Virus record (IMG/VR): IMGVR_UViG_3300005201_000719
Source: an uncultured virus (IMG/VR IMGVR_UViG_3300005201_000719)
Taxonomy: Duplodnaviria; Heunggongvirae; Uroviricota; Caudoviricetes
Reading direction: 5' to 3' (one strand)
Length of the DNA stretch: 64,000 nt
The translations under genes were made by a program, and so were the position numbers. Shown piece after piece: positions 1,907-61,450 of the stretch. The number at the start of each line of letters is the position of its first letter. Position 1 is the stretch's first letter. The notes below the pieces were generated by a model, which saw nothing but the letters and a program-made list of their open reading frames with translations, searched no databases and was not told where the DNA came from.

Positions 1907-3040
1907 TCATCTATTATTTACGAACAGTGTATCATATAAACTGTCCATATTTTGCACCGTTTTATAGGCATGGAAACGCCGGATAAAATTACCGCGCCAT
2001 GATTGGTATGATATCCGGAGATCCCCATAATTCATTCTTCCGGAATCCATCAGTTTTCGGAAACTGCGTAGTTTCCGGCGCATCCGTTTTGCGGAATCCT
2101 TTGTCGGTTTCCGCAACACCCTTCCGTTTTCCAACAGATAATACTTCCCCTTTAGAAATAATAAACCTTCTCGCAAAGGAAATATTCTCGTTTTCCTCTC
2201 ATTGACCGTTATACCTAAAGTATCACATACTATTTTTATTTCCGCAAGACATTTCTCTAAATAGCCTTTATCCTTGTGAATTAAATATAGATCGTCCATA
2301 TAGCGGCCGTAAAACTTTATTCTTAGGTTTTCTTTAATAAAATGATCAAGCTTATTTGGATGAAATATAGCAAATATCTGGGACACCTGGCTTCCCAATC
2401 CAAGTGAAATACCGGGACCGAATACTTTAATAAAATCCCAGGACAGGCTTAAAACCTGTTTGTCGTGTACGTGCTGCTGTACCTGGCTCATTAAGATACT
2501 ATGCTGAACGTTGTCAAAGTATTTTTTGAAATCTATTATCAGGGCGTAGCCGTCATTTGAATGCCCGTTCTGCCGGTAGAACCGGCAAAGGTGGGTTATA
2601 AGCCGCCGGATAGCAAAATGTACTCCCTTACCTTTAATGGATGCCCCGTTATCGTGAATCACGGTATTGGTAAGTATTGGCACAAGTACCTGATCGCAAA
2701 GGCATTTCTGTACTACTCGTTCCGTTATATGTACAGATTTTATATGGCGTATTTTCCCGCGTTCATGTAATATAAACTCCACAAAACCGCTCTGGACACT
2801 TTCCCCGGCTTCAAGCCTTCGTTTGGTTTCCCAAATGTGATGAAAGACATTCATCTCATAGCGCTGTGTGGATTCTTTCCACATTACGCCTTTTCGTGAT
2901 GATAGGAACGCTTTATAGAGATTATTGGGATCTGTAATGAGGGAAAAATCATCAAACCGGGCCAGTTTCTCATGGCGTTTTTTTTCACGCTCTGATTTTC
3001 GCCGCTGGTATCTGGCAACCTTTCTTTCTTCACTTGTCAT
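1907..3040 (-). CDS. DGR reverse transcriptase (377 aa from the ATG at 3040)
   Basis: RT motifs ERVVQKCL, IIDFKKYFDNV, LGLGSQVSQ (DGR-type SQ) and YGRYMDD; adjacent to TR and avd; GGAG RBS before 3040. Confidence 0.96.
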   Translation of the reverse strand: MTSEERKVARYQRRKSEREKKRHEKLARFDDFSLITDPNNLYKAFLSSRKGVMWKESTQRYEMNVFHHIWETKRRLEAGESVQSGFVEFILHERGKIRHIKSVHITERVVQKCLCDQVLVPILTNTVIHDNGASIKGKGVHFAIRRLITHLCRFYRQNGHSNDGYALIIDFKKYFDNVQHSILMSQVQQHVHDKQVLSLSWDFIKVFGPGISLGLGSQVSQIFAIFHPNKLDHFIKENLRIKFYGRYMDDLYLIHKDKGYLEKCLAEIKIVCDTLGITVNERKTRIFPLREGLLFLKGKYYLLENGRVLRKPTKDSAKRMRRKLRSFRKLMDSGRMNYGDLRISYQSWRGNFIRRFHAYKTVQNMDSLYDTLFVNNR

Positions 3041-3300
3041 AAACACACTCCATTGAAAAACCCTGTATAGCATCCCCCGGGCTATCGGCAAAGCATCAAG
3101 CCCGGGGGTATGCGTTATCATGCTACATAACATCAACAGGCATGAAACGGCAGGAACGCACACACCACCGCCATGCAAGAAGCGTTCGCCTGGACGTATC
3201 AGAGTTAAAATTCTCCGCCTAAAAAGGACGGAAGGATGCAGTCTCCTTCTGTGGGCGTACAAGTCGGTTATAAATAACCTACATTTGTTTTTGTATCCAC
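3041..3300 (-). ncRNA. DGR spacer region of the TR RNA, structured
   Basis: Lies between TR and RT; 10-bp stem 3074-3083/3099-3108 and hairpin GAAGGA-N7-TCCTTC at 3231-3249. Confidence 0.55.
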
Positions 3301-3304
3301 GGAA

Positions 3305-3397
3305 TCGGGGGCAACGCCACCCACCTCAGACGCATTGTTGTTATTGCTATTACCATTGTTGTTGCAATTACAGAAATTGGCGGCGGACGAAGCCGAG
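3305..3397 (-). repeat. DGR template repeat (TR)
   Basis: Minus strand reads TCG GCT TCG TCC GCC GCC AAT TTC TGT AAT TGC AAC AAC AAT GGT AAT AGC AAT AAC AAC AAT GCG TCT GAG GTG GGT GGC GTT GCC CCC GA; 10 AAY codons; aligns without gaps to VR1 and VR2. Confidence 0.97.
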
Positions 3398-3415
3398 TAC
3401 AGACCGAACCCTTTA

Positions 3416-4012
3416 TTACACTCTTACATTTTCCCCCTTCATTATTTTTTTGGCCATATCGTTAGTGGATTTTCTCCACCCTTTTAATAACCGTATTTCA
3501 AATTCTATTTTGTCAATAAATGGCAGTATTTTGCTCACATCAATAACAAAAGTGTTATACCTCAGGGAGAACACATCAGAAAAGTATTGCAGCTCCTGTA
3601 CAAGTTGTTGGCAGTTGGCGATTGCGGCCGTCTGGTAACGCCGCCTGTCCGCAAGTTCATCTGACTGGACGCGGCGGGTATACTCTTCCGGAAGTTTGGG
3701 AGCGTCAGGGTTTTTTGGATCTTCCATTGCTGACGGGTATATGGAGTTCCCGGCTGTTATATTCATCATCATGTTTCTGAGTATTTGCATGATGTTCCTT
3801 CTGAATTCGGCAAGCGCCCATTCCGGGAATTCTCCAAGGATAACACTTCCATCATCGTTTGGATCTTCAATGTACGTCTTACCATCGTTTGCGGTTTTAA
3901 TTTTTACTCCGAAATTTCGTAACAGGATAGCTGTAAGTTCTTTTCGTAATTGTCTGGCGTTGTTATAAAATTCTAGCTTAGACAAGCCTCTTTTATTCTT
4001 TATGACCGACAC
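3416..4012 (-). CDS. avd: DGR accessory variability determinant (Avd-like four-helix protein)
   Basis: Position between target gene and TR; MSVIKNKRGLSKLEFY start, GNSIYP, RRRYQTAAIANC, EIRLLKGWRKS. Confidence 0.8.
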   Translation of the reverse strand: MSVIKNKRGLSKLEFYNNARQLRKELTAILLRNFGVKIKTANDGKTYIEDPNDDGSVILGEFPEWALAEFRRNIMQILRNMMMNITAGNSIYPSAMEDPKNPDAPKLPEEYTRRVQSDELADRRRYQTAAIANCQQLVQELQYFSDVFSLRYNTFVIDVSKILPFIDKIEFEIRLLKGWRKSTNDMAKKIMKGENVRV

Positions 4013-4158: not shown

Positions 4159-4176
4159 GAGAAAGATAGGGTGCGG

Positions 4177-5481
4177 CTACGCCACACAGAAAGCGGGGGC
4201 AACGCCACCCACCTCAGACGCAGAGGTATAGTAGCTAACACCAATGAGGTCGCAACTACAGAAATAGGCGGCAGACGAGGCCGAGGGGGTGTGGAGCCAA
4301 TGCCAGTCTCGCGACCCATTCCAGCGCTTTATTCTGTAGACATAACTCCGTTGATAAATCGGGAAATGCACATTGGTATTGTAATATTGCAATTCATCCC
4401 CGTATGTCTCAGCTCCAAACAATTCAATGTCAGTCGGCACCCAAACCGTGTAATTGTTCGATGTGGAGCTGCCTTTTTTGCTGTGGTATTTGCTTATTGT
4501 ATAGAGATAATTACCACCCAAAGCAGCCTTCAATCCGGTTGCGAAAGCTCCAGAACCATCCCCGGTTGCCCCTTCAAGCCATACCCTCAATTCGCTTGCC
4601 TGATAGCCACCGGTATTGGTATCAGACGGATTTACCCTTGCTTTAGCAACAATGTTTCTGAAAACGAACAGGATATGATTCTTTGTGTTTTCTGTGCTTC
4701 CGGCGTTTTTATACGTGTTGAACCCAGCAACGACGATACGGTTGTTTTTGTAGGTGTTATTCCACACCTGCGGCGCATTGCCGTTTGTTGGCGCCGCGAT
4801 ACCAGACAAATCCAACTCGTCTATATAGTCGCCTACCAATATGCCGCCAAAATGAGGGATGCCGGTATTGTCAATTTCACCATTGTTATTGCATCGGCGC
4901 CGGATTTCTGTCATTGCTTCGGCTATTGTAGCAACCCCAAAAACGGTTAAAAGATTTCTGCCAACACCGTCCACTTCCTGCGCGAGTAACGCCGGCAAGC
5001 CTTTTATTTTCATCTTTCCGGACGGCTCGATGAAGACTTCATCAAAAGCTTCACCGCCGCTAACAATGCCAGCAACGCCAACATTGTTACCAATGCCAAC
5101 GCTGTCAACGCCGTCATCCACCCACTCAAATATAGGCGGTTCCTCATTTGGGCTGTTATTCAAAACCCACACATGGCCATTTTTCAGGTTTTTGACGTGA
5201 GTGCCGTCCCAAATTTTTGTCTGGTCGCTCTGCCCGATCTGGTCCAATGCGTACTGGGTAAGATCGCCCTGGCTTGGGGTGTTTGTCCCAAAGTTATGAG
5301 CCGTCAAGTAACCGCCCCGGCCTTTCATGCCGTCGACTTTCTCTTTAAGATAAGCCGTTCTATCGGCAAGTTCTTTGATGGGTACATTATCGAGACCGTC
5401 AGGGCCGCCCTCTACAAATTCCTCCGCATCCCAGCCGTGTACGACTTCCGAATATTCAGCGGCTTCATTGATTTCAAACAT
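4177..5481 (-). CDS. DGR target 1: tail fibre/receptor-binding protein with a C-terminal CLec-like (DUF6273-like) variable domain
   Basis: N-terminal fibre anchor motif VEGGPDGLDNVPIKELADRTAYLK; follows the baseplate genes; the last ~35 codons are VR1. Confidence 0.9.
   Translation of the reverse strand: MFEINEAAEYSEVVHGWDAEEFVEGGPDGLDNVPIKELADRTAYLKEKVDGMKGRGGYLTAHNFGTNTPSQGDLTQYALDQIGQSDQTKIWDGTHVKNLKNGHVWVLNNSPNEEPPIFEWVDDGVDSVGIGNNVGVAGIVSGGEAFDEVFIEPSGKMKIKGLPALLAQEVDGVGRNLLTVFGVATIAEAMTEIRRRCNNNGEIDNTGIPHFGGILVGDYIDELDLSGIAAPTNGNAPQVWNNTYKNNRIVVAGFNTYKNAGSTENTKNHILFVFRNIVAKARVNPSDTNTGGYQASELRVWLEGATGDGSGAFATGLKAALGGNYLYTISKYHSKKGSSTSNNYTVWVPTDIELFGAETYGDELQYYNTNVHFPIYQRSYVYRIKRWNGSRDWHWLHTPSASSAAYFCSCDLIGVSYYTSASEVGGVAPAFCVA
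4193..4285 (-). repeat. DGR variable repeat VR1
   Basis: Gap-free match to the TR: 14 mismatches at TR adenines plus 4 non-adenine third-position mismatches. Confidence 0.95.
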
Positions 5482-58115: not shown

Positions 58116-58131
58116 TGTTAGATAGGTGTGG

Positions 58132-58995
58132 CTACGCCACACAGAAGCCGGGGGCAACGCCACCCACCTCAGACGCACCGTAGTAATAGCTATGACCATA
58201 GTGGCTGCAAGTACAGAAATTGGCGGCGGACGAAGCCGAGGCAGATGATGTCCAGTACCAGTGCGTATCATCTTCCCAAACCTTGATCCTGTTTTTGATT
58301 TGCGAGAAAAAAGAAAGTTGAAAAGGCTCATCATAAAAATTAGATTCAGGTTCCCAGTATTCCCCGTCACCAAATAACTCCGTTGCCGTAGGCAGAGTAA
58401 TCTCCAGCCCGTCATTGTTTTCAAGTAACAAATCGGATATGTCCATCGCGTTGAGAAAGTCTGTATTGAGGTATTTAGCCAGAGCGCTTTCGGAGAAGCC
58501 CCCTTTGTTTGTATCTTTGGCGTTAATGGCGGATCTGAAAATTATATCTTCAAAGTTGAATAAGGCCTTACCATTCTCTGTTACTTCGACGAGCTGTACC
58601 TTCGATTCGATGTGCCGAGCAGGAAAGTCTAAACCGTCATAGCTTGCTGCAGGTACGTCAAACGAAACGCGGATAAAATCGCCAAAATTAAAATTCTCTA
58701 CCGCCTCTGCCGGCGCAGTACGGATATAGTCTTGTACCGCTTTGAACGCATGACGCCAATCACTGGCTCCCAAGTACCGTGTGAGATCGCGCGTTTCACC
58801 GGGGGCACGATTACCTTTCTCAGCGGTGTTTGCTTTTCCCGGTTTGTATCCCAGATCGCCAGGTACATCATCAACAGGCATCACTTTGAGTTTCAGCGGG
58901 GTAACTCTTTGCCGATACTTGCTCGAAAACTCAATGACTTCAAATCCGGCTTTGTTCATTGCCGAAATTGCCCTGTTCAATAAATCGTTAATCAT
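58132..58995 (-). CDS. DGR target 2 (remote): early-region protein with a C-terminal CLec-like (DUF6273-like) variable domain
   Basis: AGGAGG RBS before the ATG at 58995; DTNKGGFSES, LPTATELFG, RIKVW...WYW, ending SEVGGVAPGFCVA like target 1. Confidence 0.92.
   Translation of the reverse strand: MINDLLNRAISAMNKAGFEVIEFSSKYRQRVTPLKLKVMPVDDVPGDLGYKPGKANTAEKGNRAPGETRDLTRYLGASDWRHAFKAVQDYIRTAPAEAVENFNFGDFIRVSFDVPAASYDGLDFPARHIESKVQLVEVTENGKALFNFEDIIFRSAINAKDTNKGGFSESALAKYLNTDFLNAMDISDLLLENNDGLEITLPTATELFGDGEYWEPESNFYDEPFQLSFFSQIKNRIKVWEDDTHWYWTSSASASSAANFCTCSHYGHSYYYGASEVGGVAPGFCVA
58148..58240 (-). repeat. DGR variable repeat VR2
   Basis: Gap-free 93-nt match to the TR with 11 mismatches, all at TR adenines. 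Confidence 0.97.
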
Positions 58996-59024
58996 AAAAC
59001 CTCCTAAGTTCAAAATTGAACTAC

Positions 59025-59123
59025 TGGACCGGGGCGGAATCGAACCGCCGTTTTGACTGGTCGGGAAAAGGAGGTTTCAGAGGAAACCCGCCCACCCATG
59101 CCATACCACTAGACCACCGATCC
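59025..59123 (-). ncRNA. tRNA-like RNA with an oversized anticodon arm
   Basis: Acceptor GGATCGG/CCGGTCC-A, D loop AGTGGTA, T arm GGCGG-TTCGATT-CCGCC; ~49 nt where ~22 are expected. Confidence 0.6.
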
Positions 59124-59226
59124 AAAACCGCACAGAGCCGCGGCGTACACCCATGAACCTTCTGTGCCTATCCGTGCGTCCACGGACGGAAACTTCCGGC
59201 AGGTTTGGTTTAGCCCTCTGTGCGGA

Positions 59227-59307
59227 TGGGGACGGCAGGGGGCGAACCCTGCATGGCCTAGGCGCGCTGCCACTGGGCCGATTTGTATGACACCGCACCA
59301 CATCCCC
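59227..59307 (-). ncRNA. Degenerate tRNA-like RNA
   Basis: Acceptor GGGGATG/CGTCCCC-A, T-like arm GCAGGG-TTCGCC-CCCTGC, central stem GGCCCAG/CTAGGCC. Confidence 0.45.
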
Positions 59308-59509
59308 GGTAGGACACCCGATTTATATCCCGCTCGCTCCCTACTATCGCGGTTGCCCGTCTCTCCGGGCTGCCAAGCCTCTACTCCGTTCTGCCTCGGG
59401 CTTCCTACAGCTTCTCATCCAGTCGGATTTTGGGTGGGACTACATACGGCGTTGTACCCACAAATTCCGGACAGCCAGTACCTACACTATCCGTACCGTA
59501 AATTTTGAT

Positions 59510-59581
59510 TAGCAGGGGCTGGAATTGAACCAGCGACATCCGGCTTATGAGGCCGGCAAGCTACCGCTGCTTTACCCTGCC
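59510..59581 (-). tRNA. tRNA with CAT anticodon (Met, or Ile2); CCA not encoded
   Basis: GGCAGGG/CCCTGCT acceptor, AAGC/GCTT D stem, CCGGC-CTCATAA-GCCGG, GCTGG-TTCAATT-CCAGC. Confidence 0.9.
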
Positions 59582-59695
59582 TGGTTTTTTACCTCCTTTC
59601 TTTTCTTCCACGGAAAAACTTATGCCTCTTGTGGTTGTTAACCAGCCACAAGCCGATAAAACCGAAAACCCCGGCGATTACCAGAATCAATACGA

Positions 59696-60292
59696 TCATT
59701 TTTTTTGCGCTTCTTTCGGCGGTTCATCAGCCGGTTTCTTTTCTTCCTGACATGAGACCTTGATCGTTTCCATGCAGTTTGTAGATATGACAAGAACGTC
59801 CGTAGGAACAGTAATGTCCCCGGATGATTTTGATTTTCTCAAAATGATTTCGTCATAATCTTTGTTCTTTGAATTGGCCACAACCGCGCGGGCGTTAATA
59901 ATGGCGCCGCGGTTAATTTCCTGACCTATCGATCTGAGAATGGCGTCAACAATCTCCGTTGTCTTTTCTCTGACAAGCCCGTATGCAGATTTAGTCCGCA
60001 GATTGGTATCCAGCTTTTCAAGATAATTCTTGACGACCTCGTTTCCCTTTGTTGAAACCACACTGCAAAGCAAATCCTTCTGTTCGCTGGTCAATTCAAG
60101 GTTATTTTCCATGAAGGAATTTACCCTAAGATCATCAGCAAGCTTATTCGTAAGATCGCCAAAAAGATCATCAAGTGCATTAAGCCTGATCACCGATTCA
60201 AAAATATCGTGAACGGTTTCAACAATTTGCTCGTCTATTACCGGCCTGATGTCCTCAAAATCCGGTTGCTGATTTTGTACAACTTTCTTCAT
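59696..60292 (-). CDS. Hypothetical protein
   Basis: 198-aa ORF coupled to rusA. Confidence 0.55.
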   Translation of the reverse strand: MKKVVQNQQPDFEDIRPVIDEQIVETVHDIFESVIRLNALDDLFGDLTNKLADDLRVNSFMENNLELTSEQKDLLCSVVSTKGNEVVKNYLEKLDTNLRTKSAYGLVREKTTEIVDAILRSIGQEINRGAIINARAVVANSKNKDYDEIILRKSKSSGDITVPTDVLVISTNCMETIKVSCQEEKKPADEPPKEAQKK

Positions 60293-61371: not shown

Positions 61372-61450
61372 AGCCACTTTAGTGGCGTTTATCTCACTAT
61401 AAAGCCAAAATAATGGCTTCGTCAAGCGGTAAAGCCACTTTTTTGGCTTT
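61372..61450. promoter_or_regulatory. Three operator palindromes GCCA-N6-TGGC overlapping the leftward promoter
   Basis: Sites at 61373-61386, 61402-61419 and 61431-61450; TTGACG-18-TATAGT on the minus strand at 61425-61396. Confidence 0.75.

Follow-up and report, generated by a model that had tools for sequence, protein, structure and literature searches.

The DNA analysed here (the window, 64,000 nt) belongs to a 65.7-kb record of an uncultured virus that is classed as a complete provirus and carries an integrase, RusA, an excisionase-like gene and a divergent HTH repressor. The host is likely to be Treponema, as a homologue of DGR target 2 is annotated as a protein of Treponema and a related locus is present in a Treponema sp. 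genome. Directly upstream of target 2 lies an array of one tRNA and several structured RNAs, first proposed in a first-pass annotation of the sequence and borne out by our analysis; all of its units (U1 to U5) are on the minus strand (Table 1). Three units are indeed packed end to end, with gaps of 1 nt between U3 and U4 (59226) and 4 nt between U4 and U5 (59127–59124), and 29 nt lie between the end of U5 and the target 2 ATG (58995). The canonical tRNA(CAT) was recognized by both ARAGORN and Rfam (66.7 bits), and the 98-nt element is closed, as reported, by a perfect 10-bp stem (59128–59137/59216–59225). There is also no credible open reading frame in the array: a 24-codon frame in U2 loses its ATG in the related loci L502, L506 and L017, and U2 was rejected as a peptide gene because the start codon is not kept.

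Table 1. Features of the window that bear on the array
Feature	Position	Strand	Description
DGR RT	1907..3262		
DGR RT-2 RNA	3038..3297		
DGR template repeat	3282..3398		
DGR variable repeats	4170..4286; 58125..58241		
DGR target 2	58132..58995	-	287 aa, DUF6273 domain; variable repeat 58125..58241
Shine-Dalgarno AGGAGG of target 2	59000..59005	-	
U5	59025..59123	-	99-nt tRNA-shaped RNA; extended anticodon stem, 21-nt pyrimidine loop
Anti-Shine-Dalgarno in U5	59067..59075	-	ACCUCCUUU; equals last 9 letters of the likely host-family 16S rRNA
U4	59128..59225	-	98-nt branched hairpin, 10-bp closing stem; no homologue found
U3	59227..59307	-	81-nt tRNA shell; unrelated middle part, irregular T loop
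U2	59355..59508	-	conserved structured non-coding RNA of ~155 nt; no Rfam family
U2 closing hairpin	59355..59370	-	5-bp stem, GAGAGA loop
U1	59510..59581	-	tRNA(CAT), initiator-like; CCA not encoded
36-aa hydrophobic peptide ORF	59589..59699	-	just before the array; translation, no PHROG family
Promoter-like site	61396..61425	-	best upstream site (10/12); divergent from the HTH repressor gene

As no minus-strand promoter-like site was found between 60311 and the array, the array is likely to be part of an early lytic transcript, and the site divergent from the repressor gene is likely to be the early-operon promoter. The 36-aa ORF that precedes U1 is of membrane type with a basic tail, and similar ORFs occupy the equivalent place in L016 and L017.

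Folding energy was modest for the array as a whole (571 nt, z -0.65) and ranged from -0.4 to -3.0 for single units, with U4 at -2.99; a 10-bp stem like that of U4 arose in 21 of 1000 array shuffles and occurs at three other separate places in the window. A relaxed ARAGORN search allowing introns gave 202 overlapping calls and was uninformative. Since folding energy alone is weak evidence, it is the homologues and not the folding that prove the units.

Conservation of U5 and its loop

Target 2 has 35 relatives with 44–67% identity, and an alignment of 33 of them was used to fetch loci from metagenomes (27) and from viruses (21). Besides the window, nine distinct loci had a full-length orthologue together with upstream DNA and were counted (L001, L011, L012, L014, L015, L016, L017, L018 and L039); L019 and L020, which start inside the gene, L021, which has a partial match without an element, and the remaining target-1-like loci were left out. 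A tRNA-shaped element lies directly upstream of the orthologue in seven of these nine loci, which were picked by protein alone; no U5-type element precedes the full-length orthologues in L014 and L017. L011 carries two anti-Shine-Dalgarno (anti-SD) elements, one of them mid-array. Where the spacer was measured, the last unit ends 22–29 nt before the start codon in eight of nine loci, with a spacer of 81 nt in L018.

A first pattern scan had eight hits and returned only the contig of L001, and a pattern scan of GTDB gave 53 stretches, mostly tRNA-Val, with one clear element (L192), which was added to the sample and so was selected for the motif. Model R1 found a single true element (G005) in 151 host-family genomes, its other nine hits being tRNA-Lys or tRNA-Pro, and had no match in five related phage records (55–92% complete). 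BLAST of phage and plasmid collections returned ordinary tRNA matches or short chance hits only. A further locus, L506, was reached via U2 and has a U5 scaffold (43.6 bits) with a CCUCC-bearing loop, located about 27 nt before a different gene.

U5 has a 7-bp acceptor stem, a D arm and a T arm with a UUCRA loop, and the 99-nt cloverleaf seen in the first-pass annotation scores 39.5 bits against the Rfam tRNA family in a focused scan (gathering score 29); the window copy was missed by ARAGORN and by a window-wide Rfam scan. It lacks the 5-bp anticodon stem and 7-nt loop of a decoding tRNA, and in the eight aligned copies the anticodon loop is replaced by a pyrimidine loop of 11–21 nt on a stem of 5–12 bp. 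This enlarged loop holds an anti-SD payload that the first-pass annotation had overlooked. ACCUCCUUU is kept in seven of the eight copies and is one letter shorter in the eighth (ACUCCUUU), while the 5' half of the loop is variable. The 16S rRNA end, GGAUCACCUCCUU, was found in 28 of the 121 host-family genomes searched, most of which are incomplete; one 16S end that could be read out continues with U after it. A second class of U5 with a short D arm (L011a, L012) carries UCACCUCCUUU, and the match to the 16S end is extended to UCACCUCCUUU in L011a, L012 and L248.

Of the 152 cells in the acceptor, D, anticodon-base and T stems, 98% are paired, compared with 26–62% for slid-structure controls. 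Nine of 19 pairs have changed on both sides among the eight copies, which none of 500 shuffles equalled, in a control that ignores the relatedness of the copies. The discriminator (position 73) is A in five, G in two and U in one of the eight copies, so that charging identity is not kept; with this variation and no encoded CCA, U5 is not a decoding tRNA. ARAGORN nevertheless calls four copies tRNA-Stop, -Arg or -Lys and, at a relaxed threshold, that of L001 tRNA-Arg.

Predictions of loop accessibility were mixed, from a folding model that has no tertiary structure. In the window copy the motif is predicted by ViennaRNA to be mostly paired (0.19 unpaired), and the open-loop cloverleaf is calculated to cost 5.8 kcal/mol. 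When the cloverleaf is forced, most of the motif is accessible in L011b, L015 and L192 and half of it in L001; in the window, L016, L018 and L039 the model buries part of it. The motif was also considered as the Shine-Dalgarno (SD) sequence of a plus-strand, antisense gene; this was rejected, the next ATG opening four codons only.

We wanted to know whether U3 or U5 could belong to a known tRNA-like class, namely a Y RNA, a message-less tmRNA or an intron-bearing tRNA. A weak YrlA score was obtained at 59008–59050 (15 bits, E 5.2), the L039 element scored 26.7 bits and the L039 shell has a G3.U70 pair; however, these scores are far under the gathering score of 69 and are due to the T arm and a neighbouring hairpin, and the motif GNCGAAN0-1G is absent from 59000–59600. 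The pair at 3:70 is G-C in U3 and A-U in U5, where the D stem covaries, ARAGORN finds no tmRNA, and loops of 11–21 nt share no register that would splice to one anticodon. With a TROVE/Ro60 gene in none of five phage records as well, membership of such a class is highly improbable. Like U5, YrlA Y RNAs (Rfam RF02553) are described in PMC4201824 as non-decoding tRNA mimics of bacteria and phages, whereas U5 is without the Ro60-binding motif or the permuted arm order. The neighbouring hairpin (6 bp, ~59011–59022, minus strand), between U5 and the SD, is not conserved. tRNA shells of 125 nt with extra arms are present in L248 (2256–2382), L506 (1595–1719) and L039 (3765–3889); GNCGAAN0-1G occurs in the L248 and L039 shells and is not kept at that place in L506.

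The other units and their order

We take a CAU anticodon, a weak 1:72 pair and A11-U24 to be the determinants of an initiator tRNA. U1 has the CAU anticodon and A11-U24, with G1.U72 followed by G2-C71 and C3-G70. Initiator tRNAs have three consecutive G-C pairs in the anticodon stem; U1 has two of the three in the window and all three in L011 and L016. From these sequence features U1 looks initiator-derived. Homologues occur in four of the seven other element-bearing loci (L011, L015, L016 and L039) and in L502, and comparison with host tRNAs gave one partial match, to another CAT tRNA.

U2 has homologues in L011, L502 and L506 and, more distantly, in L017. Its five helices are paired in 92% of cells and 10 of 29 pairs are doubly changed among five sequences (0/500 shuffles), the structure having been predicted from the same alignment as was used for the count. 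U2 matches no Rfam family and is a structured RNA that is uncatalogued. The GAGAGA-loop hairpin that closes it is identical in L001 (20/20), has variants with compensatory changes in L017 and L506, and lies 3–5 nt before a tRNA-shaped unit in relatives. A GANAGA hairpin together with upstream letters is also found between two chromosomal genes in two host-family genomes and in a Helicobacter prophage (three loci: L504 ~1505–1545, L505 ~1500–1540, L507 1495–1530), again without an Rfam family.

The 81-nt degenerate cloverleaf of the first-pass annotation (U3) was sustained in part: a 7-bp acceptor and a T stem are present, but there is no Rfam match and the T loop is irregular and without A58, with a G in place of U54, as in L502 and L503. 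Acceptor and T stems are kept in seven shells of 81–127 nt, with five of 13 pairs doubly changed, and the middles of these shells cannot be aligned. As BLAST and nhmmer gave no link among them, common descent can be inferred from the shell only. No homologue of U4 was found by BLAST or profile-type searches of related loci and collections.

The units occur as U1-U2-U3-U4-U5 in the window, U1-U2-antiSD-tRNA(Ala)-other-U5 in L011, U3-U2-U1 in L502 and U3-U2-U5 in L506, with little beyond the last unit in L001, L012 and L192. On these sequence comparisons they behave as exchangeable modules that have been reshuffled between phages.

The array could alternatively hold decaying tRNA pseudogenes, left by integration or by turnover of a tRNA array. 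The irregular T loop of U3, the lack of a U4 homologue and the modest fold z-scores would fit such decay; against it stand the compensatory changes in U2, the U3 shell and U5, the invariant anti-SD and the new orders of modules in L011, L017, L502 and L506. The first-pass annotation had looked to compensatory changes in homologues to decide the matter, and their discovery supports its conserved polycistron of tRNA mimics and refutes decay for U2 and U5. We give almost no credence to the pseudogene explanation for the array, although it could still fit the U3 copy of the window.

Several elements of the relatives lie outside these comparisons. A hairpin of 6–7 bp with a GGG loop and an upstream CCC, a possible H-type pseudoknot, lies 3–6 nt before a tRNA-shaped unit in six relatives (L011 1368–1410 and 1118–1161; L015 362–404; L016 3830–3872; L017 2448–2492; L018 59–101; L192 1931–1973), with compensatory changes in L016 and L192, and is absent from the window array; a role in shielding the preceding RNA at its 3' end is possible. 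Other hairpins of these arrays, whose loops are rich in C (CCCCUCCC, CCUCC, CCCCCC), are found in L011 (~1345–1370), L015 (~320–350), L016 (~3808–3838), L018 (~12–70) and L502 (~1716–1752), and are possibly more anti-SD cargo. A non-coding module around GGCCUAUACCG is common to L011 (~1245–1310), L016 (~3750–3800) and L017 (~2735–2780) and is not in the window.

Processing, targets and possible function

tRNA-like folds direct the cutting of a long transcript by RNase P and RNase Z in tRNA punctuation and in mascRNA. Punctuation of this kind is suggested here by the tight packing, the intact acceptor and T stems, the absence of an encoded CCA and the presence of RNase Z in the hosts (above cut-off in 32 of 41 host-family genomes), and processing of the array by RNase P and RNase Z is, on these features, very probable. 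The array is distinguished from tRNA punctuation and mascRNA by its bacterial phage setting, by the conserved cargo of its units and by their shuffling as modules. Following transcription from the upstream promoter-like site, the two enzymes would cut at U1, U3 and U5, thereby freeing U2 and U4 and leaving the target 2 mRNA with a leader of about 29 nt; the earlier suggestion that the units set the 5' end of this mRNA by processing is plausible, given the 22–29-nt spacer in eight of nine loci and the RNase Z count. The accompanying suggestion of decoys for anticodon nucleases finds no specific support, since the mimics have no anticodon loop.

A tie between the array and the DGR, implied by its first description as adjoining a remote DGR target, was not upheld. 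G002, a 100% complete phage, has U5 and a target 2 orthologue without RT or RT-2 RNA, and in L506 it is a different gene that follows the scaffold; the array is therefore not part of the DGR and its link with target 2 is positional. The DGR of the window is itself genuine (Table 1). RT was found in only one (G001) of five phage records searched. The RT of G001, the closest relative (G001:C1:7284–8631), has in-frame stops in the search output and its DGR may therefore be inactive.

The U5 loop can form 11 bp with its own downstream site (-15.7 kcal/mol), and such duplexes range across loci from 5 to 11 bp and from -7 to -16 kcal/mol. One explanation is that U5 acts in cis only, as a t-element-like processing signal that sets and protects the 5' end of the next mRNA, with the anti-SD clamping its own SD until the RNase Z cut. 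This would account for the position of U5, always last before a strong SD, for the 22–29-nt spacer of eight of nine loci, for the own-site duplexes and for the many distant shells (below) that likewise closely precede an SD and start codon. However, nested cis pairing has a probability of at most 0.002 (in a model without pseudoknots), and loops and own sites have not co-evolved: own pairs have a mean of -12.13 and crossed pairs of -12.03 (p=0.36, permutation, nine loci). Further, the spacer does not track stem length (13 nt in L016 and 19 nt in the window, both with long stems), the second copy of L011 is mid-array and the spacer of L018 is long. We consider an action confined to cis doubtful.

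Across four phage genomes, U5 loops had no preference for start sites of their own genome. The payload therefore looks generic, given the lack of own-site or own-genome preference and the negligible nested cis pairing. A 63-aa gene (ATG 39869, minus strand) with a 12-nt perfect match to the U5 loop at its start region was rejected as an unproven target; this loop finds a stronger site in another phage, and no orthologue of the gene occurs in the fetched loci. A generic blocker would act on the phage's genes as well, since these too have GGAGG sites.

The lack of a specific mRNA target would also fit a decoy, in which U5 mimics the 16S 3' tail and absorbs host nucleases or proteins acting on the anti-SD, while U1 replaces a cleaved initiator tRNA. 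Toxins that remove the 16S anti-SD exist, according to PMC12274833 and PMC12620021, and some copies of U5 extend the match to 16S as described above. On the other hand, CACCU, given as the MazF-mt11 site, is absent from the class of the window copy (AACCU or GACCU), RelE1 is reported to cut within 30S and 70S ribosomes, and a catalytic nuclease is hard to titrate. A decoy of this kind is improbable.

In our preferred reading, the array comprises conserved non-coding RNA genes that act as modules in a likely early operon of the prophage, host RNase P and RNase Z would cut the units apart, and the last unit would damp initiation by anti-SD pairing with ribosome-binding sites; we put the probability of this reading at about 0.5. 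The tRNA shell would stabilize the U5 loop, as in engineered tRNA scaffolds, and the anti-SD would act in trans on mRNAs of the host or the phage by pairing with their GGAGG-type sites, with no single dedicated target. If so, a phage could tune translation initiation with RNA alone. More speculatively, phages may repeatedly have made tRNA genes into stable shells showing the 16S 3' tail, a ribosome mimic that competes with the 30S subunit for SD sites across the host transcriptome; here a tRNA-punctuated cassette would deliver the mimic alongside an initiator-like tRNA and other shuffled small RNAs, and so reprogramme initiation early in lytic growth. This fuller account is tentative and, taken whole, rather unlikely. 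The preferred reading would, if true, add a class of phage regulator that annotation misses or miscalls as tRNA-Lys, -Arg or -Stop.

Related systems and a wider motif scan

P4 CI RNA is a comparable phage RNA. The C4 antisense RNA of P1/P7 is, as proposed for U5, a phage RNA released from a longer transcript; both are encoded upstream of genes and have a loop complementary to ribosome-binding sites. According to PMC5320573, RNase P excises C4, and the b' loop of C4 blocks these sites in part. U5 has a counterpart of the b' loop in ACCUCCUUU and its own-site duplex, and no a'-type specificity loop by the own-site and own-genome tests. It is set apart from C4 by its full cloverleaf, by copying the 16S tail without a second, target-specific loop, and by its place in a likely early lytic operon, where no separate promoter was found for it. 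Rfam models of C4 had no match in the array at E up to 10.

In the engineered tRNA scaffold of Ponchon and Dardel (PMC3753655) the acceptor, T and D arms are kept and the anticodon stem-loop is swapped for cargo, as in U5; U5 is natural, conserved by selection and has an anti-SD as its cargo. The irregular-tRNA polycistrons of Mukai et al. (PMC5389517) resemble the array in being tandem irregular tRNA-like genes that may not translate, but they have acceptor branches of 8/4, E-loops and anticodon loops of the ordinary kind, whereas the units here are 7/5 with the anticodon loop replaced. Viral tRNA-like candidates are reported in PMC10690425, the main text of which contains neither 'anticodon' nor 'Shine'. 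No description of an anti-SD tRNA shell was found in the openly accessible literature and the only Rfam family matched was tRNA; as a natural tRNA scaffold with an anti-SD, U5 is uncatalogued, with U2 an additional structured RNA of that standing. If the reading holds, the U5 array would parallel in nature what has been engineered as tRNA scaffolds and tRNA-punctuated guide arrays.

Viral contigs were scanned for CCUCCUU preceding a T arm (40 of 64 parts) and, as a control, for the permuted CUCUCUU (45 of 64 parts), and both scans were sorted by one classifier. The 83 distinct test matches comprised 34 without a T or acceptor stem, 30 canonical tRNAs, seven open-motif shells, all mutually dissimilar, and 12 others; the 75 control matches comprised 45 without a stem, 19 canonical tRNAs, five open shells, all of one family, and six others. 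This suggests that tRNA shells with pyrimidine loops form a wider theme in which the anti-SD is the commoner payload, with thin support, as the scan was chosen for its motif and had a single control motif. As with U5, an SD and start codon closely follow many of these distant shells. Further test shells were recognized by eye among matches that the classifier had placed elsewhere (L235, L239, L250, L286, L297 and L298). The control scan also contained a family of tRNA shells (96 nt) in which a long stalk is combined with a UUUCUGGCUCUCUUG loop (L381, L388, L398, L444, L481 and L369), and in one anti-SD shell (L326) the whole loop arm is tandemly duplicated, giving two copies of the motif.
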